Positions 12,943 to 55,342 of a DNA stretch of 64,000 bases are shown in pieces. Under the pieces are notes generated by a model. It did no database searches. It saw nothing but the letters and a program-made list of their open reading frames with translations, and was not told the DNA's origin. The stretch lies in assembly GCA_030390025.1 (NCBI GenBank), contig CM059431.1, forward strand, positions 118,236,001-118,300,000. Reading direction: 5' to 3'. A program made the position numbers and the translations under genes. This DNA is from Squalus acanthias (Eukaryota). Each line of letters starts with the position of its first letter. Position 1 is the first letter of the stretch.

Positions 12943-14565
12943 TGTAAAGTTTCGCAATTATCGCGATTCGAAATAACATAATAGAAGCAGATTCGTTTGA
13001 TCAGTTTTATTAAACAAAATGCTGTCCTGATAATAAAGGACACAGAAGCCTGTAAAATGGCCACCGAGCATCGTGGCAGAAGCTTCCAGAATTACAGTGG
13101 GCAGACAAGATGGCGTCGAATATACATTTTAGTATAAGATTGGATCATACTCGGTAAACACTGATAAAGACAGGATGCAACCTGTTTGCATTTGGAACAA
13201 TAGCAAAGATATAAGTGCTGGAATCGTTTTCCCATGAACAAGTAAGGATCATTGTACTGGGCAATCGAAGGCCCATCCAGACACATCAATACACAAATAC
13301 CCCCCGGCTCTACAATGAGAGAGACGTTGACGGGTGATTAAGCAAGTATTCGGGGGCCCCCAAAACCAGTCAGGGAGACGATTCATACACATCCTGGCTG
13401 GGTCAACAATGGGGAAAACATTAACGGGTAGTTGGCCAGTTTCAGGTGCTACCGAAACCCGTTAAAGAGAAGAATCGCCCCATGCTGGAAGTTTTGAGCG
13501 CCAATATTACACAAAGGACAAACATTAAGATTTGAGCGGGAGATAAGGGAACACAGCACTATAACTATAGTGAACAAATGTCCATTGGTCTCTTTTTGAC
13601 TCGCTCGATCGCTGGCTGAAGCTCTTCCTTAGGGCAGGACTTTGTTGACTTTTTGACTCTTAGCCGTACTGGTCGGTTATTCGAATGTTGGGTGGAGCTC
13701 AATCGGAACGAGCCGCCCCGACAAGGGCAAGTAACAGGGTGCACCATCCCGAGTGTCAGTAAACGGTGTCTGGACCCGGAGGCCCGAAGAGACGAGATGA
13801 GACGAGAAGAAGAGGAGAAGAATCCACGTGCCGCCACGGTCAGTAAACCCCGACCGCGCCCGAAAATATAAATAAAGAACTTTTCATTGAAGTCTACCGA
13901 CAACCGGTGTCGAGCACAGGAAGACTCTTCTTTGAATTATACAAATGTTTCCGAGTTCTGTCGAGTTCTTCATGACAACAGGGAGCCTGGCCTGCTTGTC
14001 GCAGCAGCGAAAATAAAACAAGTGGGGTACAGAGACCCTTCCAAACACGTGACAGTCAGGCGCTGCAGCGAAACGAGCCGAGTGCCTCACTTTAAAATTC
14101 TCCGAAGTAACACGAGTGGTGAGCATGTTTTACGATCCTACAAATCTAGACATAGTGTAGGTATTGTTAAGGGAGGGTGGTTATTAAGGCTAAGAGATTA
14201 TGTGTTTCCCTTTTTACGATGTGCCGTGCGTTCTTCATTTCCATAGACCAAGCTTTATGAATGTATGTATACTTGTACTCTCGTTAATTTGCACCTATGA
14301 CATGTACTTCATGATCTTGGACGCTATGCAATAAAGATTTCCATTTCGTACTATTCAACCGGGTCCATTTGAGTTTTCTCTGCATTACTGCTCCCTGCAC
14401 CTAAGTCCAGTGTTAGAACCGTAAGGGCGAGTGGGTCGAACCACTCACAGGTGCTTATTGCAAAAGGGCTGGCCGGAGACCAGAGCAAGCAATAGTATTA
14501 GGCAACGAAGGCCGAACCTCGCACCAGCACCGTCTCTGAGAGACACGGTTCCCGAAACCCTTAAA
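12943..14565 (+). repeat. 5' LTR of provirus A
   Basis: Starts TGTAAAG and is repeated at 18971-20447. AATAAA at 14330. Followed by GAAAA and the PBS. Confidence 0.92.
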
Positions 14566-14569
14566 GAAA

Positions 14570-16393
14570 ATGGTGACCGCGGCAGGACATTGGCAGCAGG
14601 AGAGTATTGTTTTAGACCCTGGTTTGAATAGGCGAAATGTGATGGATGACAGGGTAGCCGACTATGTGTTTGGGAAGGTTAACTTAACCAAAAGGTGGAT
14701 AAGTGACCTACTGATGGATAAGCGTCCGCTAGACGCCGCCATCAAATGGACAGACAGTAAAGAGCATAAGAAGTCGGTAGAGAAAGCGGTCTGGCTGATG
14801 TGCTACAAGAAGCAAGTCCAACTTTCGGACCAGGTCATTGTGGCACAGGCAGCTCAGATCAGGGAATTGGAAGTAGAGATGGAGGAAAAGATCACGGGAG
14901 GACAAAAACTCATTGCATCATTGAATGCGTTACATCAGGAACGCCAAATAGTAGCCAACCACCATGAGGCTAAAATTGATTACTTAGAATGTCAGGTCAC
15001 GGAAGCGAAATTAAACGAGGGTAGGATTAGAGAACGGTGTGCCCGCCTAGCTAACCAGATAAAAGCCCAGGAAGAAAGCTTGAAGGGAGTTAGGGCGGCA
15101 TATAAGATGGCCCTCGAGGATAGGCATGAGGGAGCCGACCACAGTGTTTGCCAGAAGGAGATAGGGAACCTAAGAGAGGCCCTGAATAAGGCAAACGGCT
15201 TGGTGTGCCTCATCAGCCCGTCAGCAAACCAGCCACAGGTGGGTAGGGAATTCCCAAAATCCCTACCAGACAAAGCAGAGGAAGTATTTGCCACTGTGCC
15301 CTCCACGCCACCCAGCTATTCGGCAACCTGGGTAAGGGAGGAAGTGGTGGAAATAGAGAAGGAGGTTCCCGAGGTAGGACAACCCCCGGAGGGAGAGTCA
15401 AGACCGGGACCAATGTGTCCGCTCCGAGGTCACAAGAGAGGCCCGAATGCAGCCAATGGTGAAGATGGGGATGTCCTGAACCAACTTGTATTGCCCCACA
15501 GCTCACACCAGCTGAGAGCAATGATTAGCCATGTACGGAAGCTGTCCGAGTCAGACGACCCTTCCGTACATTTTAGAGAAGTAGAACAGACCGCAGCGAT
15601 TAATGGCTGCGACGACGAGGAAAAGACCAAAATGTTGCTGTTCTCTTTAGATAGCTTGATCCTTCAGTGTCTCTCAGACGAGAGCAAGAAGGGAAATAAA
15701 ACCTATGAGGAGTTACGGGACGAGGTCCTAGAAGTGTTAGGGGCGGATGACGAAGGTCCGTTCGTCAGATTGAGTCAAACCATACAGATGGAGGGAGAAC
15801 CCCCGAAGGTTTTCGCCGACAGGCTGTGGCCAGTATACCAGCATAGCTGCCCAGGTGCGCCAGCGCGCGTCTTTCTGAACGGCGCCGGGAAAGCTCATTG
15901 GCTCAGGTGTTTAGTAGCCAACAGCTTGCCAGCCGTCAGGGAGCAGGCCAAAGCGTGGTTTGATCCCACTAACCCCGCCACAACAGAGGAGTCTGTCCTA
16001 AATCGACTCACCATAAGGTATCAGAACACTAGGAGCACGGGAGCGCGTCCCCTTAAGGGAAAGGTGCATGAGGCAAGGCCCGCAGCCCCGGCTCAGAAAG
16101 AGTGGCATCAGGAGGGAAATCGCGCCCCACAAACCAGTGGTGTTTGTTACGGGTGCGGGAAGACAGGTCACTGGCGTAAAAACTGCAGGAATCCCTGGAA
16201 GGACCCCAGGGACAAAGCTCGCGCAGCCCGAACCCAAGCGCCTGTCTCTGAGAAAGGAGCCGGTGTGCCTATCCATCCCGATGCGATAGAATCAATGTTG
16301 GGAGCCATGCGGTCCCTTATGATTTCGCAAGGGAGGGTGGCAGTCGCTACCGGCCCCACAGATGCCACAACCCCGTCCACCGGTACCCAATGA
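14570..16393 (+). CDS. gag: Gag polyprotein (607 aa), provirus A
   Basis: Open ORF with N-terminal coiled coil, PPSY motif, capsid-like region and CYGCGKTGHWRKNC zinc knuckle. Confidence 0.92.
   Translation: MVTAAGHWQQESIVLDPGLNRRNVMDDRVADYVFGKVNLTKRWISDLLMDKRPLDAAIKWTDSKEHKKSVEKAVWLMCYKKQVQLSDQVIVAQAAQIRELEVEMEEKITGGQKLIASLNALHQERQIVANHHEAKIDYLECQVTEAKLNEGRIRERCARLANQIKAQEESLKGVRAAYKMALEDRHEGADHSVCQKEIGNLREALNKANGLVCLISPSANQPQVGREFPKSLPDKAEEVFATVPSTPPSYSATWVREEVVEIEKEVPEVGQPPEGESRPGPMCPLRGHKRGPNAANGEDGDVLNQLVLPHSSHQLRAMISHVRKLSESDDPSVHFREVEQTAAINGCDDEEKTKMLLFSLDSLILQCLSDESKKGNKTYEELRDEVLEVLGADDEGPFVRLSQTIQMEGEPPKVFADRLWPVYQHSCPGAPARVFLNGAGKAHWLRCLVANSLPAVREQAKAWFDPTNPATTEESVLNRLTIRYQNTRSTGARPLKGKVHEARPAAPAQKEWHQEGNRAPQTSGVCYGCGKTGHWRKNCRNPWKDPRDKARAARTQAPVSEKGAGVPIHPDAIESMLGAMRSLMISQGRVAVATGPTDATTPSTGTQ
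14571..14588 (+). promoter_or_regulatory. Primer binding site, tRNA-Arg(TCG)-like (provirus A)
   Basis: TGGTGACCGCGGCAGGAC just after the LTR. One mismatch to the complement of the vertebrate tRNA-Arg(TCG) 3' end as I recall it (GTCCTGCCGCGGTCGCCA). Confidence 0.8.
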
Positions 16394-18970
16394 CTAGAGC
16401 CCGCGCAGCCCGTCTACCTGTGTCCGCTCAGCTATGATGCGTGGAAAAGACCCCTGGTGGAGATGGAGGTAGAGAAGCAGAAGGGTAGTTATTTGTTGGA
16501 CACGGGAGCTTCATGCACCGTGATTCATACGGATAGCCCCTTTGACTCACCACTGTCTACCAAGGTCCCATTCACATTAGCGGGGTTCACGGGAAAAGAG
16601 CAGGCTGGCGCATTCTCCATTCCGCTCTCCATTCATTTAGGAGCACTCCACACCACATGGAAGTGCATACTGATGAAATGGCAAGAGGGGGGTGGCAGAG
16701 GTATCCTCGGATCGGATCTCCTATCGGAACACGGGATCCTCGTGGACCTTAGGAATCACTGTCTCTGGGGAGCCAAGGGTGGAAAAGGCAAGGTAGTTGT
16801 AATCCCGGGGAAGGAAGGTAAAGGGGCCCTGTGTACCATGAAGCCAACCGGAGGTTACGACGTCGGGCTTATGGTCGCGGATGTCCCAACGGACATGCAA
16901 ACGTATGTGTCAGATAATATGCACGCGTTTGCAACCCACAAGCACGATTGTGGGAGGGTTACCGGGTTTGAGGTCAGCATAGACGGGGACCCCATGACCC
17001 GGCCCCAAAAGCAGTATAACTTCCCCAAAGAAGCAGAACCCGACATGGAGACAGCAATGTCCTCATTGGTGCAGCAGGGCGTGTTGAGGCCGATAGCCAC
17101 ACACGTGAACTCCCCATTATGGCCGGTAAGGAAGCCGGATAATTCGTAGAGGGCCACGGTGGACTACAGAGTCCTTAACAGTAACATTCCCGCCTGCGCG
17201 CCCACAGTAGCAGCAGTTGCTGACCTAATAGGGAGTTTCCCAGCATCCACGACCACATTCACGGTGCTGGATATCTCGAACGGTTTTTGGTCCATCCCGC
17301 TGCGGCGAGAGGACCAGTACAAGTTTGCCTTTACTTTTAAAGGACAACAGTACACATGGAACTGTTTGCCACAGGGTTTCCACAACAGCCCCAGTATTTT
17401 CCATCAGTGTATGGCAGGAAGTTTAAAGGAGTTTAGTCAGCCCAATCAGATAGTGCAGTACGTGGATGATTTGCTCCTGTTCACGGACTCAAGGGAGGAG
17501 CATGGACCACTGCTAGCCGAGTTATTGGAGCTGCTAGCGAGAAAGGGTTTTAAAGTGAACCCTAAGAAAGCACGTATCGGTCAGCAGGAAGTAAAATTCC
17601 TGGGTCTGACCATTCGCGCTGGGGAAAGAGCCATAGATAAGGCTAGGAGGGAGTCGGTGCAGGAGTTACCGATTCCCAACACCATAACGGGTGTGAGGTC
17701 CTTTCTGGGACTGACCGGTTACTGTAGAGACTTCATCGAGGACTATGCGGCCACAGCAGCTCCGCTGCTCCGACTCCTCTATAAGGGAGTGGAGTGGTCT
17801 TGGGACGAGGGTTGTCAGGCAGCATTCGAGAAGTTAAAAGGGGATCTGCAGACCGTGCCAGCTTTAGGGGCCATAGATGGGGGGAAGGAGTTTTTCCTGG
17901 AGGTAGCTGCCAGCGGAGACAGCTTGAGCGCTGTGCTGCTCCAAGAGCGTCACGGCAAGCTGAGGCCGGTTGTCTATTCGTCCAGGGTGTTAACGGATGT
18001 GGAGAGGAGTTTTTCCAACTGCGAAAGGCATCTCTTAGCCACGCATTGGGCTGTGAAAAGATCAGCGATCTTCACAGGGCTCTCTCCCATCACTCTCCTC
18101 ACCCATCACACACCAACTTAGATGCTTCTAGATGGGAGGATTAAGGATGGGACCGTAAGCAGCGCTCGTATTGCGTGCTGGACCCTTCTCCTTTCCCAGA
18201 TGGATCTTAGAGTTAAAGGTCTTTGCGAGCCCAAGCTCGCGGCCAACTTGGTATACGCCGGAACAGCCCACTAGTGTTCGGTGGAAGGGGTGTGGGAGGT
18301 CAACATAGGTTTGCGGGCCGGGATACATCCCACAGGTCGCGAGATTTATGTTGATGGTTCCAGCACAGTGTCCGCTGGTGAACAACTCACAGGGTGTGGA
18401 GTTTATGACCCTGCGGCAAACCTTGTCCTGGCAATTAAACTCCCCAGCACCATGAGCGCACAGCAGGCTGAGCTGTCTGCGGTGGCGTACGTCGTTACCC
18501 ACCCAGAAATCTTCCCAACCCCATACACGATTTGTTCGGACAGTATGTTTACGTGCAATTCGTGTACGGAATACCTGGCCATTTGGTCCCGCCGTGGCTA
18601 CACCTCCGCGGACGGGCGACCTTTAACGGTGAAGCCCTTGCTGGAAAAGATCCTAGCAGCAGTAGGGGAGGAAGGGGAGATTTTCTTCCATAAGGTGAAG
18701 GCTCACTCCTCCACAGAGCCCCGCGGGGAGGGCAACCAGCAGGCGGATGCGCTAGCCAGGGACGGTGCCCGTAACGGCATTTTCTGGGACCCCTATGGAC
18801 CCGGACCAGTGGCAGCGATCCAAGGCAGGGAAGGGAATCCCGGGAACACCAGGATAGCACTGCCCCTAGACCTTAAGACCATCCAGAGCCAGGATCCCGC
18901 CCTAAAAGCAGTTCTCAGAACGATTACTGAGGGCAAGCAGGTAGAGGGCCCGTACAGTACGGCAACCCTC
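16394..18970 (+). pseudogene. pol: pro-pol: protease, RT, degenerate RNase H (tether), RNase H; three nonsense codons; truncated before the integrase core
   Basis: Same frame as gag. Motifs LLDTGAS, LDISNGF, LPQGFHNSP, YVDD, and IYVDGSS/AQQAEL/SDS/KVKAH/GNQQADALA. TAG at 17147, 18119 and 18272. Confidence 0.92.
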
Positions 18971-20447
18971 TCCAGAATTACAGTGGGCAGACAAGATGGC
19001 GTCGAATATACATTTTAGTATAAGATTGGATCATACTCGGTAAACACTGATAAAGACAGGATGCAACCTGTTTGCATTTGGAACAATAGCAAAGATATAA
19101 GTGCTGGAATCGTTTTCCCATGCACAAGTAAGGATCATTGTACTGGGCAATCGAAGGCCCATCCAGACACATCAATACACAAATAACACCTGGCTCTACA
19201 ATGAGAGAGACATTGACGGGTGATTAAGCAAGCATTCGGGGGCCCCCAAAACCAGTCAGGGAGACGATTCGTACACATCCTGGCTGGGTCAACAATGGGG
19301 AAAACATTAACGGGTAGTTGGCCAGTTTCAGGTGCTACCGAAACCCGTTAAACAGAAGAATCGCCCCATGCTGGGAGTTTTGAGCGCCAAATATTACACA
19401 AAGGACAAACATTAAGATTTGAGCGGGAGATAAGGGAACACAGCACTATAACTATAGTGAACAAATGTCCATCGCTCTCTTATTCCCTTGACTCGCTCGA
19501 TCGCTGGCTGAAGCTCTTCCTTAGGGCTGGACTTTGTTGACTTTTTGACTCTTAGCCATACTGGTCGGTTATTCGAATGTTGGGTGGAGCTCAATCGGAA
19601 CGAGCTGCCCCGACAAGAGCAAGTAACAGGGTGCACCATCCCGAGTATCGGTAAATGGTGTCTGGACCCGGAGGCCCGAAGAGACGAGACGAGATGAGAG
19701 GAAGAGGAGAAGAATCCACGTGCCGCCGCGGTCAGTAAACCCCGACCGCGCCCCAAAATATAAATAAAGAACTTTTCATTGAAGTCTACCGACAACCGGT
19801 GTCGAGCACAGGAAGACTCTTCTTTGAATTTTACAAACGTTTCCGAGTTCTGTCGAGTTCTTCATGACAACAGGGAGCCTGGCCTGCTTGTCGCAGCAGC
19901 GAAAATAAAACAAGTGGGGTACAGAGACCCTTCCAAACACGTGACAGTCAGGCGCTGCAGCGAAACGAGCCGAGTGCCTCACTTTAAAATTCTCCGAAGT
20001 AACACGAGTGGTGAGCATGTTTTACGATCCTACAAATCTAGACATAGTGTAGGTATTGTTAAGGGAGGGTGGTTATTAAGGCTAAGAGATTATGTGTTCC
20101 CCTTTTTACGATGTGCCGTGCGTTCTTCATTTCCATAGACCAAGCTTTATGAATGTATGTATACTTGTACTATCGTTAATTTGCGCCTATGACATGTACT
20201 TCATGATCTTGGATGCTATGCAATAAAGATTTCCATTTCATACTATTCAACCGGGTCTATTTGAGTTTTCTCTGCATTACTGCTAAGTCCAGTGTTAGAA
20301 CCGTAAGGGCGAGTGGGTCGAACCACTCACAGGTGCTTATTGCAAAAGGGCTGGCCGGAGACCAGAGCAAGCAATAGTATTAGGCAACGAAGGCCTAACC
20401 TCGCACCAGCACCGTCTCTGAGCGACACGGTTCCCGAAACCCTTTCA
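18971..20447 (+). repeat. 3' LTR of provirus A, lacking its first ~142 bp
   Basis: Matches the 5' LTR from 13085 onward. Ends CCCTTTCA followed by the TSD. Confidence 0.92.
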
Positions 20448-33665: not shown

Positions 33666-33849
33666 ATAATTTTTTTGTTTATTATGCAATCAAACATTAT
33701 AATATAAATTGAAATTGGAAAGCTAAATGTTTACTGTTGTGTTTTGTGTAACTTATGGGGCTTGGTTAGGGAAGGCCATATTGATGTGGTCTTGGGGAAG
33801 TCCAGAGGAACATAGCAGTGGGATGGCATTCAATTGACCTGAGCTGCTA

Positions 33850-34980: not shown

Positions 34981-34981
34981 T

Positions 34982-35089: not shown

Positions 35090-35091
35090 AC

Positions 35092-36773
35092 TGTAGAATT
35101 CGCAAAATTATCACGATTTTATAAATAAGAAGGAGACATATAGTTTCGTACAAACAGCTTTATTTCAGCAGAATGCTGTCAGGTTTTCAAAGTGGACACA
35201 AACAGCCTGTAAAATGGCCGCCACGCCTCGTGGCAGAACGTTCTAGACTTTCAATGAGCAGACAAGATGGCGTTCCAATAAACATTTATGCGAGATCGTA
35301 CAAGACTCAGCACATTTGAGATAATTGACAAGACATAATGGGTTTGCATTTTATACATAAATACTGGAATAAGTCTCCCAGGTGCGAATAAGGGCTATTG
35401 TACCGAGCGATCAAGAACCCATCCAAAGACATTAATATGCAAAATCCCCACGACTCTACGATGAGAGAGCCGTTTGCGGGTAGTTACAGAAAACATTTGG
35501 AAGCCCCAAAACCCCTCCAGGGAGAATACTGGCCGGTTACACAATGGGAGAAATATTAACGGGTACTCAGACAGTTACAAGTATCACCGAAACCCATTAA
35601 ACGGAGATCACCCTATACAAGAAGTTTGAGCGCCAAAACCCTGACAAAAGAAAGACATTAAGATTGGGCGGGAAAAGAGGAATTACAGCACTATAACTGT
35701 AAGGTAGAACCGTCCATCTGTCTCTTGCCTCTTGACTCTTGCCTCTTGACTCTTGCCTCTTGACTCTTGCTCTTGCCGCCTGACTCCTTGCCGCTTGCCT
35801 CGTGCCTCTGCCTCTTGCTGTTTGACTTGCTGGAAGACTATTGAACTTTCTGATCCGCCAGGATCAACCTCGTGGCTTGCCGCGAAGATCTGTGAAGAAC
35901 TGGGCTGTGAAGCCTTGAAGTGGGCACACCATCCCGAGAAGTCGGTAAACGGTGTTGGAACCGAAGGCCCGAGATGAGATGAGATGAGATGAGATGAGAT
36001 GAGATGAGATGAGAAGAGAAGAAGACGACAATACGTATCGCCACGGTCAGTAAGCCCCGACCGCGCCTATAAGTCGAATAAACACTTCCTTGCCCAGGAA
36101 GACCATTCTTTGAGTTTTACAAACTGGTGAGGGCACAGGAAGACTATTTTTTTGAGTCGTGTCGGAACTCCGAGGACAACACAGATCTTCATGACAGCAG
36201 ACGGTCCAGCCTGCTAGCCGGAGCAGAGACGAGTAAACAAGTGGGGTACAGAGACCCCTGATCAACACGTGGGTGGTCAGGTGCTGCAGGAAAAACATCC
36301 GAGCAGAGTTTCGGAATTCTCCGAGTTATCACGAGTGGTGAGCATGAGTCTCGATCCTACAAATCTAGTTTAGGACAGGTATTGATAGGGGAGGGTTTGA
36401 GTTTTAAGGATAATTGTAATGTGTGCCCCCTTTTTCGATGTGTCGTGCGCTCCTCGTTTCCCTAAAATTAGTTACATAACTGCGTGTAAGATTGTACTGT
36501 CATTAATCTGTGCTTATGACATGTATTTCGTAATCTTGAATAATATGCAATAAAGAATTTCCATTTTGCACTATTCAACCGGGTCTACCTGAGTTTTCTC
36601 TGCATTATTGCTCTCGCACCTAAGTCCAGTGTCAGAACCATAAGGGCGAGTGGGTCGAACCACTCACAGGTGTCTAGTGTTACCAGGCTGGCTGGAGACC
36701 AGAACAGGCAACAGGGCCTAACCTCGCACTAGCACCCAGGCTAAGCACAGAGCCACAGGTCTCACCCCTTACA
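35092..36773 (+). repeat. 5' LTR of provirus B
   Basis: TGTAG...CTTACA. TATAA at 35692, AATAAA at 36549, with internal (CTCTTGM)n and (GAGAT)n tracts. Confidence 0.93.
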
Positions 36774-36778
36774 GAAAA

Positions 36779-36796
36779 TGGCGACCGCGGCAGGAC
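36779..36796 (+). promoter_or_regulatory. Primer binding site, tRNA-Arg(TCG)-like (provirus B)
   Basis: TGGCGACCGCGGCAGGAC, separated from the LTR end by the 5-nt spacer GAAAA. Confidence 0.85.
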
Positions 36797-36817
36797 ACTG
36801 GCAGCGAAAAAAAAAAT

Positions 36818-38584
36818 GTGTTAGACCCTGGTATGAATGGGCGAAATGTCATGGAAGAGAGAATAGCAGATTATGTGTTTGGAAAAGTGAATTTGACCAA
36901 GAAATGGATAAGTGACCTGCTGGTGGATAAGCGTCCACTAGAGGCAGCCGAGAGGTGGACAGATAGCAAGGAACATAAAAAAACAGTGGAGAAAGCGGTC
37001 TGGCTGATGTGCTATAAAAGACAAGTCCAAATTTCGGACCAGGTCATCTTAGCGCAGGCAGCTCAGATCAAGAGTTTAGAGGTGGAAATGGACGAGAAGG
37101 TCGCGGGGGGGCAGCAGCTCATCGCGACTTTAAATGCGTTGCATCAAGAACGCCAGTTAGTCGCCAACCACCATGAGGCAAAAATAGATTACCTCGAGTG
37201 CCAGGTCACTGAGGCAAAGTTAAATGAGGGCAGATTAAAGGAACGATGTGCCCGCCTAGCTGCCCAAATAAAAGTCCAGGAAGAGAGCTTAACGGGGGTT
37301 AGGGCGGCATATAAGATGGCCCTCGAGGATAAATTTCAGGGGGCCGATCACAGCGTCTGCCAAAAAGAGATAGGGAACCTTAAAGAGGCCCTGAACAAAG
37401 CGCACGGCATGGTGTGCCTTATCAGCCCGTCCGCACATCAGCCGCTAGTAGATGAGGGATTTCAGAAATCCCCACCGAACAAAGCAGAGGAAGTATTAGC
37501 CACTGTGCCCTCCGCGCCACCCAGCTATTCGGCAACCTGGGTGAGGAAGGAAGTGGTAGAAGTAGAGAAAGAGCCCACTGAGGTAGAAGTGAAGCCGGGA
37601 CCGTTGTGTCCGGTCACGGGTATCAAGAGGGGCTCGAACGGAGCAGGTGGGGAAGAGGGGGATCTCCTCAACCAGCTTGTGTTGCCTCACAGCTCACACC
37701 AGCTGAGGGTTATGATAAGTCACGTACGGAAGCTGGCCGAGTCAGACGACCCTTCCGTACATTTCAGGGAAATAGAGCAAACCGCAGCCATTAACGGCTG
37801 CGACGATGGGGAAAAAGCAAAAATGCTGTTATTCTCATTAGACAGCTCGATCCTTCAGTGTCTCTCAGACGAGAGCAAGAGGGGAACTAATACCTATGGG
37901 GAGCTAAGAGATGAGGTCCTAGAAGTGTTGGGAATGGACGATGAAGGTCCGTTCGTTAGATTGGGACGAACAGTGCAGATGGAGGGAGAACCCCCGAAGG
38001 TTTTCGCCGACAGGCTGTGGCCAGTATACCAGCGTAGCTGCCCAGGCGCGCCAGCGCGTCGCCGCATAGACGGCGCCAGTTTAAATCATTGGCTCAGGTG
38101 TATAGTAACCAACAGTTTGCCAGCTGTCAGGGAGCAGGCAAAAGCGTGGTTTGATCCCACTAACCCCGCCACTACAGAAGAGTCGGTCCTAAATCGACTC
38201 ACGGTAGGGTACCGTAATACCAGGAGTACGGGAGCACATCCCCTTAAGGGAAAGGTGCATGAGGCGCGGCCCGCAGCCCCGGCTCAAAAGGAATGGCATC
38301 AGGAGGGTAACCGCGCCCCGCAGGCCAGTAATGCTTGTTACGGGTGTGGGAAGACAGGGCATTGGCGCAAGAACTGCAGGAACCCTTGGAAGGAGTCCAG
38401 GGATAAAAATCCCGCAGTCCGAGCCCAGGCGCCTGTCTCCGATAGGGGAGCTAGTGCACCTATCCATCCCGATGCGATCGAATCAGTGTTGGGAGCCATG
38501 CGCACCCTCATGATTTCGCATGGAAGGGTGGCAGTTGCTACCGGCCCCGCAGATGCCGCAGCCCCGTCCAATAGTACCCATTGA
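36818..38584 (+). CDS. gag: Gag polyprotein, provirus B
   Basis: Colinear homolog of A gag with PSAPPSY and CYGCGKTGHWRKNC. The ATG at 36778 is put out of frame by an A10 run; in-frame ATGs occur downstream. Confidence 0.9.
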   Translation: MLDPGMNGRNVMEERIADYVFGKVNLTKKWISDLLVDKRPLEAAERWTDSKEHKKTVEKAVWLMCYKRQVQISDQVILAQAAQIKSLEVEMDEKVAGGQQLIATLNALHQERQLVANHHEAKIDYLECQVTEAKLNEGRLKERCARLAAQIKVQEESLTGVRAAYKMALEDKFQGADHSVCQKEIGNLKEALNKAHGMVCLISPSAHQPLVDEGFQKSPPNKAEEVLATVPSAPPSYSATWVRKEVVEVEKEPTEVEVKPGPLCPVTGIKRGSNGAGGEEGDLLNQLVLPHSSHQLRVMISHVRKLAESDDPSVHFREIEQTAAINGCDDGEKAKMLLFSLDSSILQCLSDESKRGTNTYGELRDEVLEVLGMDDEGPFVRLGRTVQMEGEPPKVFADRLWPVYQRSCPGAPARRRIDGASLNHWLRCIVTNSLPAVREQAKAWFDPTNPATTEESVLNRLTVGYRNTRSTGAHPLKGKVHEARPAAPAQKEWHQEGNRAPQASNACYGCGKTGHWRKNCRNPWKESRDKNPAVRAQAPVSDRGASAPIHPDAIESVLGAMRTLMISHGRVAVATGPADAAAPSNSTH

Positions 38585-39703
38585 CTAGAGCCCACGCAGC
38601 CTGCCTACCTGTGTCCTTTTAAAAGACACGCACAGGAGGGGGTCTCCGGTAGGGAGGCCAGGTTAGTAGAGCAGGCCTTGCGGGAGGAGAACGCCCGTTT
38701 AATAAGGAAAGTAGACGGGCTAGAAGGACAGCTTAGAGAGCAGGCCCTGCGGGAGGAGAACGCCCGCTTAATGGGAAAGTTAGACGTGCTCATGCTAGAA
38801 GCACAGCTTAGAGAGATAAAGGCAGCCTAGAGGGTAGCCAGAAGCAGGGAGTATGAGGATTTAAATCAGTGCAAACTGTATAAGCCAGGTGCACAAGGGC
38901 CTACCTCAGGGGCCAAACCTGCGAGTGGGGACTCGCAGCCCCAGGTAGGGCCACAGGGCACACAGGCAGGCAAAGCAGCTTGCATCAGGGGAGAGGACAT
39001 CCTAGAAAAATGTAGGATCTTTTATTGGGGTTGGGAGTCAGATGAGGAAGAGTTCGAGGAGCTCGACGAAGATAGTGACACAAGCGAGGAGGAGCTGGAA
39101 TCGGAGGACGAAAGGGTCGCCCCCGATTCAAGTATAGGGGGGACAGGGGCTGCAGATAGAGATCCACAAAGGGTGGAGGCCGAAGCTGCAGGTCACGAAC
39201 GCAGGGGGGCGGAGCTAGGGGAGGCGGAGCCAGCCGCTGTGGTGGGACCACAGGGCGTGGCGATGGAAGCCTCAGAGCCCGAGCCGCCCGGCTTGAACGT
39301 CTTGCCCTCGAGGGAGGTAGGGACTGCGAGTGAAGGGCCGCCTACTGGGCCAAGTAGGGCGGTGACACAAGCTGCAGATCCCGAGTTCAGGGAGGCGGAG
39401 TCAAGGGAGGCAGAGCCAGCGACTGTGGTGGGACCACAGGTCGCCACGGTGGAAGTCTCGGAATCCGGTCCGTCGGTCCTGAAGTTCCTGCCCCCGGTAG
39501 CTCTCCGTAGGTCAAGTCGGACACCCCAGCCCAGGAAGATATGGTCAAGTCCCCAGAGTGTCCCAAGGCGTAGGTTCAAGGCTAAGGCAGCCCAGGGAGA
39601 GCCCAGTCACAGCGCAGCAGCAACAGGCTGCGGCAGATCAAAGGGAGGGGTCAATGCCCTCCCACCGTTGGGAGAAGCCTGCGGCAGCAACCGCAGAATT
39701 TGA
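38585..39703 (+). pseudogene. ORF-X (coiled-coil + acidic/Pro-rich), in frame with gag, one internal TAG at 38828
   Basis: Manual translation from the gag stop is open except for TAG at 38828 (Tyr in C). Homologous to ORF-X of provirus C. Confidence 0.75.
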
Positions 39704-40011
39704 GTAGGCCGCCCTGGGAACGGGCGGCGCTGTACAGTGATAAGTTTAGGATGAGCTTATAAGTTTATAGTTTTAAATCAGGTTATAAGTTTATAGTTTT
39801 AAATCGGGTTAAGTCGGTAGTTTAATTTTGTTTAACAGAAAGAGGTAAAATGATGGGAGTTTTTTTAGAGATAGGAATAGTTAAAGTCTATCCAGCGCAC
39901 ATGTCTTCTTACGTGAGGCGAGGTCAGGGGACCCGCTCACCCTTCACAAAAGCCAGAGACTCTTGGGAGGCTGGCTACCTCATTCTATCTGATCACAGGA
40001 ACCAAGGAAGG

Positions 40012-42342
40012 ATGGAACGAATTCTAGTATTGCTCGCGGCAATCGGATGTGGATTGGCCTATCGAGGCCGCACCAAGGATGTTGTGGTGTTTGGATGCTC
40101 CGGGGACACGGCCCCCATCGCGGTGGATGGGACCGGAAGGCGAGAGGCTGAGGAGACCACCACCTATTTCCACAAGGGAAGGTGGCCAGGATGGCTGGGA
40201 ACAAATTCAACAGAGTATTCCAGTACATCGGGTTTTGCCTACAAGAGACTTCTTCAATGTGCCCCAAAGTAAGGATCATTGCACCCAGAGTCAGCGTCAC
40301 CGTCGGCAAGCGAATTTGTTTGACTTGTAATGGGAATGTCCCATTGAGCCGATGGTGGTGGCTACGAAAGCTGAGCAAAAACATGAGGAACTCTTCGGTC
40401 GAGTGGGAGCGACTGGGTAATAATACCCATCGGACAATTACGGGGACAAACGGACAAGTGAGAGTCTGTTGGGACAAATGGTGGGAACCGGATGAGGGAA
40501 TTTATGTATGTATGTGGGGGTCAAAGTACGTTTGCCCCAAAGGCATCTCCATATTTTTCATCAATCAATGGCAGGATAACGGACAGGGGATGAGGTGGGA
40601 TGCGAGCACCAGGGGGTGCGGAGCCCCATACTCCCCGATCCCGGTAAATGCCACTGAACTCATTACGCGCCCACGCAAAGCCCCGCCCACGATTCCGGTG
40701 GTTCTAGCTAAGGAAGAAGGCTGCCCTAAAACCAGTAAAGGACCTGGGAATGGTTTGGTACTGGTCCCCACAGACCAGATACAATTTCAGGGGGTACATT
40801 ACGCGGTGGCCTCGGTGATTTTAAATCTCACCGAGGTGCGGTTACCAGAGTGGTGCCCCAAAAAGACGGAACAGTTATATCAGGTCCTGTTGACCAAGAT
40901 GTTTAGACAATTTTATGAGTTTGATTTCGCGGAAATTGATAAAACAAGTTTGTACACCGCACCACATGAAGTTTTGGATCAGGTGGGGAGACAAAGAGTG
41001 GGGGGTTGTGAACGACGTGTTCACTGCTTTCAATACAGGTACATCTGTGGTCAACGCTCTAGACAGCGTGGAGCTGCAGACCCAGATTAATGGCTTAAAA
41101 ACGCAATTAAAAAGCATTCTCACAGATGAAAATAAGGTGGTTGGGTTTGGGTTACACGAGGACCAGGCCATGACTCTCCATTTAAAAGAAATAAAAGCCG
41201 AACTAGAGAAACATGCGCGTACGGTAAATGCCCTGATTAGGGAAGATCGGAATGCGTCCGATCAGGCTGCGCAGAATGAGGTGTGCGTGCTTTACGGGGC
41301 GTGGTTACTGGGCGAGGGCCGCAGTAATTTGGAGGATTTAAAACAAGGTTTGGTCCCGTCCTGGATAAGTAACAAACACCTGCAGGCGCTCCACCCTTTT
41401 TAGAACGCATTAAGCCCGTGCCAGCTCAGGCTAGCTTCAGAAGCATACCCAGTCCCCGTGGACTGTGGACGATCAAACCATACTATGCCGGTTTTGAGCG
41501 ACACAACAAAGCCCGCCCCGGTGTATCGGGTAGAGAACATTGATGTCATTCAGGGGGGAGCCCACATTCGCTATGCAGCGGTTCCACCTTACGTCATCCG
41601 CTGGGAGCAAACGATGACAGGTACAGATCTCTCTGGTTGTCGTGGCCGGGGAGCACACATAATACTGTGTCCCCAGCACTTGAATGCCTTTTTAACACCA
41701 CAGTGTGGGTTCAGATCGGCTGGCGCCAAGCCCATGAATTGCACCATGGAGGCAATGGCACAAGATCATGTGCCTCCGCAGGTAGCATACATCGGGGGTG
41801 GACCATATTGTGTTACCACTGCAGCGCAACACTACCAACATGGAAACCGTAGCCGGTGTCCGGTGAGTGACAGCAGTTTCTGTTTCAAACCCAGGGCGGA
41901 AGTTCAAGTAGCACAACAGCGAATTGTCCCAATCCCTGAACCATCCACGGTTCATCTTACCGTAAAAGAGAACTTCACCGACCTGCAGCGATTCGTCACG
42001 CATTTCGGATACCTCATTCCCCCTCTCCCTGAACACCTCACCAAGCTTTTGAAAGCCGTCGCGGTATCGCAAAAACATTTTTACACCCTAGAACAAAAGA
42101 CTGTCGAGATAGGGACAGAAATTCTGGACATAGTAATTCCACCGTGGTGGAATCTGTTCACCAACATTGAAGTGCCTTCCTGGATTAGAATAGCCTCCCA
42201 CATTTTAGTTGTATGCCAAGTGTTTATTGTGATATACTTATTGGTCGTGCATTGTAAGAGAGGCAAACGCCTCACCAAGAACGAAAACACGGGAGAGTGG
42301 CGAGAACGTTACATGCGCGTGCACGATGAAAGCACCGTGTAA
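40012..42342 (+). pseudogene. env: Envelope glycoprotein (signal peptide, Ig-like domain, class I fusion-like subunit, TM), disrupted
   Basis: MERILVLLAAIGCGLA, DEGIYVC, heptad repeat and TM WIRIASHILVVCQVFIVIYLLVV. Frame changes at ~40265 and ~41000, stop at 41401. Confidence 0.85.
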
Positions 42343-42794
42343 ACAGACAAAATGGCGTCACTCCCGTTTTCCACGTGCGCCTCGGAAGTGTTGTAATCGA
42401 TCGTGATTTTTTTCTCAGAAACTGTAATTAAGTTTGGAACTCTACATGTTTAAGAGTTGGTTTTGATTATTTTTGTTTGGTGTTGTTGAATATGATTGTT
42501 TGTTTTTTTTTTGTTGTTTTCTTTTTCCTTGAATAAAAGATATGCATATGCAGGTGGTGCGAGAGGCATCGGCCTGGTTACACCTGGAAGGAAAATACAA
42601 GTGGTATAAGTTAAAGGCAAATGCTGCCTACGGTGTTATAAGAATGTAGTTTTTCCTGGGAAATAAGGACGACACAGAGACCCTAGATAGTTTTAAGTTA
42701 TGGGAATTTTTGGATGTGGAGAATCGAGATAATATTGCTCACCACAATAGTTTTTGATACGATAAGCGGAGTTATTCACATCAACAGGAGGGAC

Positions 42795-43315
42795 TGTAGA
42801 ATTCGCAAAATTATCACGATTTTATAAATATGAAGGAGACATATAGTTTCGTACAAACAGCTTTATTTCAGCAGAATGCTGTCAGGTTTTCAAAGTGGAC
42901 ACAAACAGCCTGTAAAATGGCCGCCACGCCTCGTGGCAGAACGTTCTAGACTTTCAATGAGCAGACAAGATGGCGTTCCAATAAACATTTATGCGAGATC
43001 GTACAAGACTCAGCACATTTGAGATAATTGACAAGACATAATGGGTTTGCATTTTATACATAAATACTGGAATCGGTCTCCCAGGTGCGAATAAGGGCTA
43101 TTGTACCAAGCGATCAAGAACCCATCCAAAGACATTAATATGCAAAATCCCCACAACTCTACGATGAGAGAGCCGTTTGCGGGTAGTTACAGAAAGCATT
43201 TGGAAGCCCCAAAACCCCTCCAGGGAGAATACTGACCGGTTCCACAATGGGAGAAGTATTAACGGGTACTCAGACAGTTACAAGTATCACCGAAACCCAT
43301 TAAACGGAGATCACC
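42795..43315 (+). repeat. 3' LTR of provirus B, first part
   Basis: Matches the sequence from 35092 onward and is cut after GATCACC. Confidence 0.92.
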
Positions 43316-44967
43316 TGTAAGGGTTTTGACACGCCTGTGGCTCTGTGCTTAGCCTGGGTGCTAGTGCGAGGTTAGGCCTTGTTGCCTGTTCTGGTCTCCA
43401 GCCAGCCTGGTAGCACTAGACACCTGAGAGTGGTTCGACCCACTCGCCCTTACGGTTCTGACACTGGACTTAGTTGCGAGAGCAATAATGCAGAGAAAAC
43501 TCAGGTAGACCCGGTTGAATAGTGCGAAATGGAAAATCTTTATTGCATATTATTCAAGATTACGAAATACATGTCATAAGCACAGATTAATGACAGTACA
43601 ATCTTACACGCAGTTATGTAACTAATTTTAGGGAAACGAGGAGCGCACGACACATCGTAAAAGGGGGCACACATTACAATTATCCTTAAAACTTAAACCC
43701 TCCCCTATCAATACCTGCCCTAAACTAGATTTGCAGGATCGAGACTCATGCTCACCACTCGTGATAACTCAGAGAATTCCGAAACTCTGCTCGGATGTTT
43801 TTACCGCAGCGCCTGACCACCCACGTGTTGATCAGGGGTCTCTGTACCCCACTTGTTTACTCGTTTCTGCTCCGGCTAGCAGGTTGGACCGTCTGCTGTC
43901 ATGAAGATCTGTGTTGTCCTCGGAGTTCCGACACGACTCGAAAAATAGTCTTCCTGTGCCCTCGTCCCGATGCGATAAAACCCGAAGAATGGTCTTCCTG
44001 TGCCCTCACGCCAGTTTGTAAAACTCAAAGAATAGTCTTCCTGGGCAAGGAAAGTGTTTATTCGACCTACAGGCGCGGTCGGGGCTTACTGACCGTGGCG
44101 ATACGTATGGTCGTCTTCTTCTCTTCTCATCTCATCTCATCTCGGGCCTTCGGTTCCAACACCGTTTACCGACTTCTCGGGATGGTGTGCCCGTTTCAAG
44201 GCTTCACAGCCCAGTTCCACACAGATCTTCGCGGCAAGCCACGAGGTTGATCCTGGCGGATCAGAAAGTTCAAAAGTCTTCTAGCAAGTCGAGCAGCAAG
44301 AGGCAGAGACAGCAGTCAAGAGTCAAGAGCAAGAGAAAGATGGACGGTTGTACCTTACAGTTATAGTGCTGTAATTCCTCTTTTCCCGCCCAATCTTAAT
44401 GTCTTTTCTTTTGTCAGAGTTTTGGCGCTCAAACTTCTTGTATAGGGTGATCTCCGTTTAATGGGTTTCGGTGATATTTGTAACTGCCTGAGTACCCGTT
44501 AATACTTCTCCCATTGTGTAACCGGCCAGTATTCTCCCTGGAGGGGTTTTGGGGCTTCCAAATGTTTCTGTAACTACCCGCAAACGGCTCTCTCATCGTA
44601 GAGTCGTGGGGATTTTGCATATTAATGTCTTTGGATGGGTTCTTGATCGCTTGGTACAATAGCCCTTATTCGCACCTGGGAGACCGATTCCAGTATTTAT
44701 GTGTAAAATGCAAACCCATTATGTCTTGTGATTTATCTCAAATGTGCTGAGTCTTGTCCGATCTCGCACAAATGTTTATTGGAACGCCATCTTGTCTGCT
44801 TATCGAAAAGTCCAGAATGTTCTGCCACGAGGTGTGGTGGCCATTTTACAGGCTGCTTGTGTCCACTTTGAAAACCTGACAGCATTCTGCTGAAATAAAG
44901 CTGTTTGTACGAAACTATATGTCTCCTCCTTATTATATAAAATCGCGATAATATTGCGAATTCTACA
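43316..44967 (-). repeat. 3' LTR of provirus C
   Basis: Complete LTR, preceded on the minus strand by CAGGAGGGAC as in B. Confidence 0.93.
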
Positions 44968-45418
44968 GTCCCTCCTGTTGATGCGAATAACTCCGCTTAT
45001 CGTATCAAAAATATTGTGGTGAGCAATATTATCTCGATTCTCCACATCCAGAAAATCCCCATAACTTAAAACTATCTACGGTCTCTGTGTCGTCCTTATT
45101 TCCCAGGAAAAATTACATTCCTATAACACCGCAGGCAGCATTAGCCTTTAACTTACACCACTTGTTTTTCCTTCCAGGTGCAACCAGGCTGATGCCTCTC
45201 GCACCACCTGTATATGCATATTTTTTATTCAAGGGAAAAAAGAAAACAAAAACAAAACCAAACAATCATATTCAACAACAACACCATCACCAAAATAATC
45301 AAAACCAACTCTTAAACAAAGAGTTCCAAACTTAATTACAGTTTCTGAGAAAAATCACGATCGATTACAACACTTCCAAGGCGCACGTGGCAAATGGGAG
45401 TGACGCCATTTTGTCTGG

Positions 45419-47769
45419 TTACACGGTGCTTTCATCGTGCACGCGCACGTAACGTTCTCGCCACTCTCCCATGTTTTCGTTCTTGGTGAGGCGTTTGCCT
45501 CTCTTACAATGCACGACCAATAAGTATATCACAATAAACACTTGGCATACTACTAAAATGTGGGAGGCTATCCTAATCCAGGAAGGCACTTCAATGTTGG
45601 TGAACAGATTCCACCACGGTGGAATTACTATGTCCAGAATTTCTGTCCCTATCTCGACAGTCTTTTGTTCTAGGGTGTAAAAATGTTTTTGCGATACCGC
45701 GACGGCTTTCAAAAGCTTGGTGAGGTGTTCAGGGAGAGGGGGAATGAGGTATCCGAAATGCGCGACGAATCGCTGCAGGTCGGTGAAGTTCTCTTTTACG
45801 GTAAGATGAACCGTGGATGGTTCAGGGATTGGGACAATTCGCTGTTGTGCTACTTGAACTTCCGCCCTGGGTTTGAAACAGAAACTGCTGTCACTCACCG
45901 GACACCGGCTACGGTTTCCATGTTGGTAGTGTTGCGCTGCAGTGGTAACACAATATGTTCCACCCCCGATGTATGCTACCTGCGGAGGCACATGATCTTG
46001 TGCCATTGCCTCCATGGTGCAATTCATGGGCTTGGCGCCAGCCGTTCTGAACCCGCACTGTGGTGTTAAAAAGGCATTCAAGTGCTGGGGACACAGTATT
46101 ATGTGTGCTCCCCGGCCACGACAACCAGAGAGATCTGTACCTGTCATCGTTTGCTCCCAGCGGATGACGTAAGGTGGAACCGCTGCATAGCGAATGTGGG
46201 CTCCCCCCTGAATGACACCAATGTTCTCTACCCGATACACCGGGGCGGGCTTTGTTGTGTCGCTCAAAACCGGCATACGTAATACTATACCCATGATAGT
46301 ATGGTTTGATCGTCCACAGTCCACGGGGACTGGGTATGCTTCTGAAGCTAGCCTGAGCTGGCACGGGCTTAATGTGTTCTGAAAAGGGTGGAGCGCCTGC
46401 AGGTGTTTGTTACTTATCCAGGACGGGACCAAACCTTGTTTTAAATCCTCCAAATTACTGCGGCCCTCGCCCAGTAACCACGCCCCGTAAAGCACGCACA
46501 CCTCATTCTGCGCAGCCTGATCGGACGCATTCCGATCTTCCCTAATCAGGGCATTTACCGTACGCGCGTGTTTCTCCAGCTCAGCTATTATTTCTTTTAA
46601 ATGGAGAGTCATGGCCTGGTCCTCATGTAACCCAGACCCAACCACCTTATTTTCATCTGTGAGAATGCTTTTTAATTGCGTTTTTAAGCCATTAATCTGG
46701 GTCTGCAGCTCCACGCTGTCTAGAGCGTTGACCACAGATGTACCTGTGTTGAAAGCAGTGAACACGTCGTTCACAACACCCCTTCTTTGCCTCCCCACCT
46801 GATCCAAAACTTCATGTGGTGCGGTGTACAAACTTGTTTTATCAATTTCCGCGAAATCGAACTCATAAAATTGTCTGAACATCTTGGTCAACAGGACCTG
46901 ATATAACTATTCCGTCTTTTTGGGGCACCACTCTGGTAACCGCACCTCGGTGAGATTTAAAATCACCGAGGCCACCGCGTAATGTACCCCCTGAAATAGT
47001 ATCTGGTCTGTGGGGACCAGTACCAAACCATTCCCGGGTCCCTTACTGGTTTTAGGGCACCCTTCTTCCTTAGCTAGAACCACCGGAATCGTGGGCGGGG
47101 CTTTGCATGGGCGCGTAATGAGTTCAGTGGCATTTACCGGGATCGGGGAGTATGGGGCTCCGCACCCCCTGGTGCTCGCATCCCACCTCATCCCCTGTCC
47201 GTTATCCTGCCATTGATTGATGAAAAATATGGAGATGCCTTTGGGGCAAACGTACTTTGACCCCCACATGCATACATAAATTCCCTCATCCGGTTCCCAC
47301 CATTTGTCCCAACAGACTCTCACTTGTCCGTTTGTCCCCGTAATTGTCCGATGGGTATTATTACCCAGTCGCTCCCACTCGACCGAAGAGTTCCTCATGT
47401 TTTTGCTCAGCTTTTGTAGCCACCACCATCGGCTCAATGGGACATTCCCATTACAAGTCAAACAAATCCGTTTGCTGACGGTGACGCTGACTCTGGGTGC
47501 GATGATCCTTACTTTGGGGCACATTAAAGAAGTCTCTTGTAGGCAAAACCCGATGTACTGGAATACTCTGTTGAATTCGTTCCCAGCCATCCTGGCCACC
47601 TTCCCTTGTGGAAATAGGTGGTGGTCTCCTCAGCCTCTCGCCTTCCGGTCCCATCCACCGCGATGGGGGCCGTGTCCCCGGAGCATCCAAACACCACGAC
47701 ATCCTTGGTGTGGCCTCGATAGGCCAATCCACATCCGATTGCCGCGAGCAATACTAGAATTCGTTCCAT
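45419..47769 (-). pseudogene. env: Envelope glycoprotein of provirus C; C-terminal 490 aa (furin site to tail) open
   Basis: RQRR/GVVNDVFTAFNTGTSVV, heptad repeat, Cys-rich ectodomain and TM. Stops at 47524 and 46907, frame change at ~47512. Confidence 0.88.
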
Positions 47770-48066
47770 CCTTCCTTGGTTCCTGTGATCAGATAGAATG
47801 AGGTAGCCAGCCTCGCAAGAGTCTCTGGCTTTTGTGAAGGGTGAGCGGGTCCCCTGACCTCGCCTCACGTAAGAAGACATGTGCGCTGGATAGACTTTAA
47901 CTAATCCTATCTCTAAAAACTCCCATAATTTTACCTCTTTCTGTTAAACAAAATTAAACTACCGACTTAAACCGATTTAAACTATAACCTTATAACCTCA
48001 TCTAAAACTATAAACTTATTCTTAACCTTAAACTGTACAGTGCCGCCCGTTCCCAGGGCGGCCTAC

Positions 48067-49212
48067 TTAAATCCTGAGAAGGCTGCCACGAGCTTTTCCC
48101 GACGGTGTGAGGGCATTGACCCCTCCCTTTGATCTGCCGCAGCCTGTCGCTGCTGCGCTGGGACTGGGCTCTCCCTGGGCTGCCTTAGCCTTGAGCCTTC
48201 GCCTTGGGACACTCTGGGGACTTGACCATATCTTCCTGGGCTGGGTTATCCGACTTGACCTACGGAGAGCTACCGGGGGCAGGAACTCCAGGACCGACGG
48301 ACCGGGTTCCGAGACTTCCACCGTGGCGACCTGTGGTCCCACCACAGTCGCTGTATCCGCCTCCCCTAACTCCGCCTCCCTGAACTCGGGATCTGCAGCT
48401 TGTGGCACCGCCCTACTTGGCCCAGTAGGCGGCCCTTCACTCGCAGTCCCTACCTCCCTCGAGGGCAAGACGTTCAAGGCGGGCGGCTCGGGCTCTGAGG
48501 CTTTCATCGCCACGCCCTGTGGTCCCACCACAGCGGCTGGCTCCGCCTCCCCTAGCACCTCCCCCCTGCGTTCGGGACCTGCAGCTTCAGCCTCCACCCT
48601 GTGTGGATCTCTATCTGCAGCCCCTGTCTCCCCTGTACCTGAATCGGGGGCGACCCTTTCGTCCTCCGATTCCAGCTCCTCCTCGCTTGTGTCACTATCT
48701 TCGTTGAGCTCCTCGAACTCTTCCTCATCTGACTCCCAACCCCAATAAAATATCTCACATTTTTCTAGGATGACCTCTCCCCTGATGCAAGCTGCTTTGC
48801 CTGCCTGTGTGCCCTGTGGCCCTACCCGGGGCTGCGAGTCCCCACTCGCAGGTTTGGCCCCTCCCCTAAGACAGGCCACCGCCCCTGCTTGTTTCTGTGA
48901 GATCTCACTTGCTGGAGGCTGCAGATTTCTATCCTGTTTTAAATCCTCATACTCCCTGCTCCTGGCTACCCTGTAGGCTGCCTTTATCTCTCTAAGCTGC
49001 CCTTCTAGCACGTCTATTTTTCCCATTAAACGGGCGTTCTCCTCCCGCAAGGCCTGCTCTCTAAGCTGCCCTTCTAGCCTATCTACTTTCCCCATTAAGC
49101 GGGCGTTCTCCTCCCGCAGGGCCTGCTCTTTTAACCTGGCCTCCTTACAGGAGACCCCCTCCTGTGCGTGTCTTTTAAAAGGACACAGGTAGGCGGGCTG
49201 CGCGGGCCCTAG
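48067..49212 (-). CDS. ORF-X, 381 codons, fully open and in frame with gag after TGA-CTAG
   Basis: 39 open codons link the gag stop to ORF 48067-49095. Contains repeated QALREENARLMGK units, an acidic tract and duplicated VVGPQ repeats. Confidence 0.8.
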   Translation of the reverse strand, partial: LGPAQPAYLCPFKRHAQEGVSCKEARLKEQALREENARLMGKVDRLEGQLREQALREENARLMGKIDVLEGQLREIKAAYRVARSREYEDLKQDRNLQPPASEISQKQAGAVACLRGGAKPASGDSQPRVGPQGTQAGKAACIRGEVILEKCEIFYWGWESDEEEFEELNEDSDTSEEELESEDERVAPDSGTGETGAADRDPHRVEAEAAGPERRGEVLGEAEPAAVVGPQGVAMKASEPEPPALNVLPSREVGTASEGPPTGPSRAVPQAADPEFREAELGEADTATVVGPQVATVEVSEPGPSVLEFLPPVALRRSSRITQPRKIWSSPQSVPRRRLKAKAAQGEPSPSAAATGCGRSKGGVNALTPSGKARGSLLRI

Positions 49213-54667: not shown

Positions 54668-54680
54668 GAGGTGTGCCAAA

Positions 54681-55047
54681 ATAAGAACATAAGAACATAA
54701 GAAATAGGAGCAGGAGTAGGCCAATCGGCCCCTCGAGCCTGCTCCGCCATTCAATAAGATCATGGCTGATCTGATCCTAACCGCCAATCTACTATCTATC
54801 ACAGAACCATCTCCTGCATCTAACAGAATTGCACACACGAAATAGGAGCAGAATCAGGCTACACAGTCCCTGGGCCCGCTCCACTACCCACAGGGCCATG
54901 ACCGATCCGAACCTAGACTCATGTCCAAATTCCTGCCCGCTCCCCGTAACCCTTAATGCCCTTTACTTCTAGGAAACTGTCTATTTCTGTTTTAAATTTA
55001 ATTAATGTTGTAGCTTCTACAGCTTTTTGTGGCAGCATATTCCATGG
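54681..55047 (-). mobile_element. CR1-type LINE 3' end inserted between the two H2 genes
   Basis: (ATAAGAAC)n tail and the AGGAGCAGGAGTAGGCC 3' UTR, as at 5831 and 59870. Confidence 0.85.
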
Positions 55048-55342
55048 ACCTACCATGGAATATGCTGGTCATTTTTTTATTAAAGGCCGAGGTTCATGGT
55101 CCAACTTTTGTTTAGTGTTTTGGACATTATCTCCAGGTTGTGAGAACCAGTTATGTTATTGACTGTTTTTTTGTGTTTATTTCTATGAGTTTGTCATGAG
55201 GAATTGACACACACAGAGTTTGTAAAATAAATAAGTTTCTGTATTCAAAATATACATGGCTGGTGGTTGGAATTATTGGTGCCTTGGCCGGCTTAGGGGT
55301 TGCGTGCTGGGTTGATTAGTGTTTGTAGCAATGGCAGGGGCC

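Follow-up and report, generated by a model that had tools for sequence, protein, structure and literature searches.

How does an endogenous retrovirus translate its pol gene when the gag gene that precedes it in the same frame is closed by a stop codon? This question is raised by a window of 64,000 nucleotides (nt) of the Squalus acanthias genome (assembly GCA_030390025.1, contig CM059431.1, positions 118,236,001 to 118,300,000 of the forward strand), which harbors three related proviruses, called here A, B and C. Each of their gag genes ends in TGA followed by CTAG, with pol (in A) or an open reading frame (ORF) called X (in B and C) in the same frame immediately downstream. The TGA is read here as a programmed gag-pol junction that would be crossed by UGA readthrough, in a family of endogenous retroviruses of cartilaginous-fish type; given the sequence evidence set out below, a probability of about 0.8 is assigned to this reading.

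At the end of gag, UGA followed by CUA(G) is found in 3/3 copies, and the coordinates and codons of this arrangement, first reported in the first-pass annotation of the window together with the continuation of pol or X in the gag frame, were confirmed (Table 1). The stop-to-stop gag frames closed by the TGA comprise 602-620 codons, each with a gag zinc knuckle. In the ~1.1 kb past the TGA, the gag frame holds one stop in A, one in B and none in C, whereas each of the other frames holds 16-22. Additionally, where in-frame stops that disable the three proviruses were checked, they are of another kind: all six (17147, 18119, 18272, 38828, 41401 and 46909) are TAG, none is TGA and none has a C directly after it.

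An indication that ribosomes have to cross this stop comes from the beginning of pol. In provirus A, the earliest ATG in frame is codon 24 after the stop and the catalytic aspartate of the protease is codon 36, whereas homology to proteases begins at codon 17 with the Pfam RVP model or at codon 16 with the HIV-1 protease, whose residue 5 aligns there and thus places the mature N-terminus near codon 12. Since protease homology precedes the first in-frame ATG, translation must enter from upstream. The RVP score drops from 28.8 to 19.8 bits if translation is begun at the codon-24 ATG, and the ATGs at +41 and +44 after the stop are both out of frame. The coding sequence of A continues in frame past UGA with no other start that preserves the whole protease. 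The pol ORFs of such elements are currently called from an internal methionine that cuts into the protease, and their annotation would be corrected by this reading. Four frog or coelacanth entries annotated as 'NYNRIN-like' (P0003, P0004, P0005 and P0008) are full retroviral Pol proteins, with ~51% identity to the reverse transcriptase (RT) of the window, and three of them are annotated from a methionine located 3 residues before the protease aspartate.

The position of the stop is conserved across the family. Gag of A and gag of B/C are separated by a synonymous divergence (dS) of 0.67 with a ratio of nonsynonymous to synonymous divergence (dN/dS) of 0.15-0.17; since gag was under purifying selection across this split, its stop persisted in a replicating family. 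Five gag relatives were available, two proteins from a gag search and three further members of a skate cluster (four skate proteins and one Logan protein in all), and the end point is the same as that of the window gags in four of the five (48-61% identity): three of the four skate proteins, including one aligned at 61%, and the Logan protein (48%). The skate relatives show 59-61% identity to the window gag, which points to a cartilaginous fish as host, and the fifth relative is a 334-aa broken copy. Contigs of four sequencing runs, representing four organisms, were aligned to positions 15800-17200; in three of the runs diverged contigs begin aligning at 16383-16386, just upstream of the gag stop, which they appear to keep. 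In snakehead retrovirus (SnRV; locus L003, recognized by its match to a labeled RT in the supplement of PMC7947760), gag and pol also share a frame that is interrupted by one stop only, 32 codons before the protease aspartate compared to 36 in the window.

According to the proposed mechanism, most ribosomes would terminate at UGA and release Gag, while the following CUAG would render termination inefficient, with a few percent of ribosomes inserting an amino acid at UGA; these would continue in frame into a protease-RT-RNase H-integrase product. B and C would belong to a pol-less lineage that inherited the junction, X beginning at the deletion joint. The suggestion that Gag-Pol is made by UGA suppression in A remains the best reading for the family, because protease precedes the first ATG, the stop position is kept in relatives and the SnRV stop matches; none of the individual copies can make a full Gag-Pol, and the three do not count as independent cases.

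Similar junctions are found in lokiretroviruses. The junction DNA was read by eye in 8 of the 24 consensus sequences in the supplement of PMC7947760 (Cne and Sau being named by their position in the file). TGA CTA G is present in Ofa, Cne, Pyo and Sau and TGA CTA A in Bsp, Dcl and Lro, so that 7/8 of the junctions read carry TGA CTA, and each of these runs on in the same frame to pol or to the conserved motif with which pol opens; the eighth, Pfl, is annotated as fused and has CGA CTA A at the matching place, UGA and CGA being interchanged in alphaviruses as well (PMC13517186). Among the other 16 consensuses are Tfu, available only as a protein with X-L-S at the junction, nine annotated as fused, and Ape, which begins past the junction (PMC7947760). 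Readthrough at TGA CTA would, if true, explain how many lokiretroviruses make Pol, an explanation absent from the available main text of PMC7947760, in which 'readthrough', 'frameshift' and 'stop codon' were not found, although its figures or supplement could still show the junction; the same three terms were not found by a term search in the available text of PMC9040795. A separate observation concerns the Loki-Xla, Xtr and Npa proteins, whose junctions read FFR or FLG and could, as a guess from protein text, hide U-rich slippery sites.

Several points weigh against a programmed junction. B and C are ~94% identical, and therefore only two independent lineages (A and B/C), and two independent looks at the context, are at hand. 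The 7-mer TGACTAG occurs 7 times in the window against 6.8 expected, with no enrichment, and the probability that both TGA and CTA were retained by chance between A and B/C is 0.37-0.41, as estimated from synonymous divergence in gag and from how often its two-fold sites and leucine codons were kept (CTA accounts for 37/284, or 13%, of the leucine codons in the proviral ORFs). Taken alone, the triple match of TGA CTAG is weak evidence. The pol frame of A is broken by TAG at 17147, 18119 and 18272 and its integrase is gone. The gag relatives are protein sequences and bear on the end position alone, and the absence of any difference in 16391-16397 among 40 listed of 286 in the aligned contigs is weak evidence. 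As to support by likeness, the lokiretroviruses form a clade distinct from the window family, and nine of their other consensuses are annotated with a fused gag-pol (PMC7947760). Finally, a structural stimulator may contribute, given a weak hairpin past the stop and the longer stem that A can form.

This last point leads to the alternatives. That readthrough is real but dependent on downstream RNA structure, CUAG being incidental or secondary, is possible, if on balance improbable. The hairpin (6 bp, +10 to +30) is found in A and B, where a single difference preserves the pairing (G-U to A-U), and the longer stem of A would extend from about +20 to +80; in some alphaviruses UGACUA readthrough is indeed stimulated by structures (PMC13517186). 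On the other hand, folding of the 60-150 nt past the stop gives z scores of -0.4 to -2.2 in all three copies, C prefers another fold, and B and C retain only 32 nt of shared downstream sequence. The 3' folding proposed as a check in the first-pass annotation thus yielded the hairpin in two copies and no significant structure. Local folding is strongest around -120 to -140 in C (z -4.5 to -6.0) and around +80 in A (z -5.1), and these folds are not shared. A type III signal (UAG-G plus a pseudoknot) was not found, the stop being UGA-C with no significant fold by a program that does not model pseudoknots. Insertion of selenocysteine at the UGA is a reading without support. The signal would probably reside mainly in the local context and not in a pseudoknot of gammaretrovirus type.

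Explanations that dispense with readthrough fare worse. Expression of pol from a separate spliced mRNA in the style of foamy viruses, or a splice that removes the stop, with TGACTAG acting as a normal terminator or belonging to a splice signal, is quite unlikely. AG occurs at +4, +6, +15 and +38 past the A stop, the one at +38 after a pyrimidine-rich run, the in-frame ATG at +70 stands in a strong context, and the coelacanth gene model has gag and pol fused without a stop, with Gln at the 36-codon position. However, a start at +70 would remove the first protease strand, the first ATGs past the +38 AG are out of frame, and foamy virus pol lies in a different frame from gag (PMC8278194). In the lokiretrovirus junctions, moreover, CTA is constant and the AG that comes after it is found in two phases, at +4 or +5. 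That the copies inherited the stop as a disabling mutation, the active ancestor having had a fused gag-pol, is very hard to credit: other stops are abundant in the three copies and fused forms exist among distant relatives (the coelacanth model and Loki-Pfl), but gag stayed under purifying selection between A and B/C, and skate and Logan gags share the end point, both of which argue against it. Long proteins that bridge gag and protease were also sought, a test weak in itself, and the two matches obtained cover the protease side only. Essentially every contig differs from A at its 17147 stop, which is private to A in all four runs, whereas no listed difference touches the gag stop. A programmed UGA junction is preferred for Gag-Pol.

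For B and C, the first-pass annotation had carried the same suppression over to a Gag-X product, for which a functional role is not supported. X opens with 11 protease codons left at the pol-deletion joint, 32 nt past the stop, which are followed in C by a tandem coiled-coil repeat, acidic and proline-rich repeats and a basic tail. Beyond a weak coiled coil no domain match was obtained for X, and an origin from the integrase tail was not confirmed by BLAST against all fetched proteins, which gave only a weak similarity of the coiled-coil repeat to gag 146-188 (37%, E 0.07). Between B and C, dN/dS is 0.80 in X, indistinguishable from 1 (Fisher p 0.44 versus neutrality), compared to 0.38 in gag (p 3e-5), with p 0.06 for the contrast between the two. 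It is doubtful, then, that Gag-X is a selected fusion protein of the pol-less lineage, even if 381 open codons would await a ribosome that crosses the stop in C and X in B has a single stop, against the 16-22 of other frames. In B that stop interrupts X as early as codon 82. The pol-less form is not confined to one species, since contigs of two runs, from two other organisms, leave the A sequence at 16425 and switch to X-like letters, with an unchanged register of the joint across the 24-30 nt visible. The open frame of X shows coding ancestry and not present function, and Gag-X is most likely a by-product of the junction.

The family was placed with RT trees, a quick one of 59 rows and a careful one of 28; the 59 were chosen out of 182 RT rows as matches above ~33% identity minus near-duplicates and partials, plus a sample of gypsy outgroups. 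The window RT falls on the retrovirus side with a support of 100/99, and in both trees it stands outside a clade of five Loki-type RTs, four of which were so labeled in this analysis by RT motifs matching the alignments of PMC7947760 and the fifth (P0185) by its place in the first tree. An initial identification as a lokiretrovirus was rejected on the basis of these trees and of a forced grouping (p-AU 0.0007). A dual RNase H (tether plus RNase H) is present in A and is not diagnostic of lokiretroviruses, because it is common to all retroviruses. The closest match among the rows is a Logan protein (91%), followed by coelacanth and frog elements (about 51%), next to which the window RT takes a basal position that is itself not firmly placed; a specific grouping with SnRV may exist but gains no support in the trees. 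Endogenous kin of SnRV have been described as clade Huo (PMC6001957) and as lineage I of elephant-shark endogenous retroviruses (PMC4422223). Scans of viral contigs gave one locus with RT (SnRV), 12 retroviral loci with the alignment and none with gag; in one locus (L006) the gag-pol junction was not found by pattern search, and a metagenome scan with RT gave only two short unrelated matches. Among the 20 sequencing-run matches listed none is recorded as RNA, which is uninformative on expression.

The proviruses themselves are nested and damaged. An internal deletion truncated the 3' long terminal repeat (LTR) of A at ~18971, with loss of integrase and everything beyond, and the 3' LTR of B is in two parts (42795-43315 and 57271-58430), split by the insertion of C. 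A third level of nesting is formed by a 4.6 kb Harbinger-type element (52429-57017, DDE_Tnp_4) in the 5' LTR of C; a second, degraded Harbinger-type element lies at 32204-35107, a solo LTR of B/C type at 28442-30122 on the minus strand, and the insertion site of A is a LINE RT fragment (12008-12874). The LTRs are very long, about 1.6-1.7 kb (12943-14565 and 35092-36773), and 97.8-98.6% identical in pairs across proviruses. The first gag ATG lies 4 nt past the LTR end, leaving hardly any leader behind U5, and shares nucleotides with the primer-binding site, which appears complementary to the 3' end of tRNA-Arg; no tRNA genes were found in the window. The target duplication of B (35086-35091; 58431-58434) is apparently CATG. 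An additional AC precedes the 5' LTR, matches the AC after the purine tract before the 3' LTR and is possibly an untrimmed integration end. Sequence searches with env, made with the paramyxovirus F-like Env of lokiretroviruses in view, gave no Pfam match at E 0.05 and no PDB sequence match.

Table 1. Coordinates of the proviruses, their reading frames and the gag stop contexts (positions in the window).
Feature	Position	Strand	Remarks
Gag stop of A, TGA in CTAG context	16391..16397	+	codons CAA TGA CTA GAG
Gag stop of B, TGA in CTAG context	38582..38588	+	codons CAT TGA CTA GAG
Gag stop of C, TGA in CTAG context	49209..49215	-	codons CAA TGA CTA GGG
Stretch after the stop common to A and B/C	16394..16425	+	32 nt, 94% identical; B/C pol-deletion joint adjoins
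Provirus A, pol-bearing	12943..20447	+	4-bp target duplication CAAT; LTRs 97.8% identical
gag of A	14570..16393	+	one CCHC zinc knuckle; first ATG overlaps primer-binding site 14571-14588
pol of A, gag frame	16394..19018	+	protease, RT, tether-like RNase H, second RNase H; without integrase
Provirus B, pol-less (gag, X, env)	35092..58430	+	LTRs 98.3-98.5% identical
gag frame of B, stop to stop	36722..38584	+	
ORF X of B, gag frame	38585..39703	+	TAG at 38828 (codon 82)
Provirus C, pol-less (gag, X, env)	43316..57270	-	4-bp duplication CACC; nested in B 3' LTR
gag frame of C, stop to stop	49213..51021	-	
ORF X of C	48067..49212	-	381 open codons
env of C, broken	45419..47943	-	B copy at about 39826-42342
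LTR end, primer-binding site and first gag ATG	14566-14588, 36774-36796, 51000-51022		

Retroviral readthrough is taught as a matter of UAG plus a pseudoknot, and UGA-CUAG is associated with cellular genes such as LDHB. Of the vertebrate genes that the first-pass annotation had named as leaky at UGA-CUAG, AQP4 and MDH1 are confirmed in print. For the context itself, experiments in human cells showed that UGA-CUA alone gives 1.5% readthrough and that 12 downstream nt are enough for full readthrough of four genes (PMC4132726). In retroviruses, suppression of the gag stop has been assumed for SnRV, gamma- and epsilonretroviruses and Ovex1 (PMC2717909), and UGA gag stops are listed for SSSV (UGAAGA), ZFERV (UGACGA) and RMEV (UGAAGU) (PMC13517186, section 4.1.2), with a further TGA stop in XtERV-S (PMC8278194). 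The available text of the same August 2026 review gives UGACUA for alphaviruses, in which UGA and CGA are exchanged, for a dicistrovirus and for cellular genes, with no retroviral case, and never names lokiretroviruses (PMC13517186). Neither UGA-CUA in a retrovirus nor a paper pairing 'lokiretrovirus' with 'readthrough' was found among the top-ranked matches of full-text literature searches, subscription papers and Repbase being outside their scope. The mechanism class is expected for this retroviral branch; because UGA gag stops were already described in fish and frog retroviruses, the novelty is confined to the CUA(G) context and to its reappearance in lokiretroviruses. If reporters confirm it, a retroviral member would be added to type II readthrough, a moderate gain since the mechanism class itself is well known. 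A broader proposal can be put forward only tentatively and is itself improbable: structure-free UGA-CUA(G) readthrough might be a general, overlooked route to Gag-Pol in the deepest retroviral lineages (this family and teleost lokiretroviruses, by convergence or ancestry), the UAG and pseudoknot of gammaretroviruses a later refinement, and the pol-less lineage might perhaps keep the signal for a coat-linked Gag-X.

Compared to known systems, the window family shares with the fish and frog UGA retroviruses an in-frame UGA between gag and pol that is presumed to be suppressed, and differs from SSSV, ZFERV and RMEV in the hexamer, which in these is other than UGACUA. The lokiretroviruses resemble it in TGA CTA in frame with pol (in 7/8 junctions read) and in the dual RNase H, and are distinguished by a PFG-type RT and a long protease insert, apart from the separate position of the window RT. 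With SnRV there is agreement, besides the single stop in one frame, in the one zinc knuckle and in an RT of LPQG type (with 43% identity across the RT core), whereas the SnRV stop is UAG-GGC instead of UGA-CUAG and the Gag and Env of the window show no significant BLAST similarity to those of SnRV. Moloney murine leukemia virus likewise makes a minor Gag-Pol product by stop suppression; unlike the window, in which no such signal is seen, it uses UAG-GG and an H-type pseudoknot, with 27 codons before the aspartate. The type II systems are not retroviral, and in alphaviruses a long stem-loop, none of which is evident in the window, raises the rate of readthrough. Nevertheless, it is with these systems that the 7-nt context is shared in full, since it is that of Sindbis, o'nyong-nyong and chikungunya viruses and of human OPRL1, OPRK1, MAPK10, AQP4 and MDH1, in all of which it is leaky by experiment.

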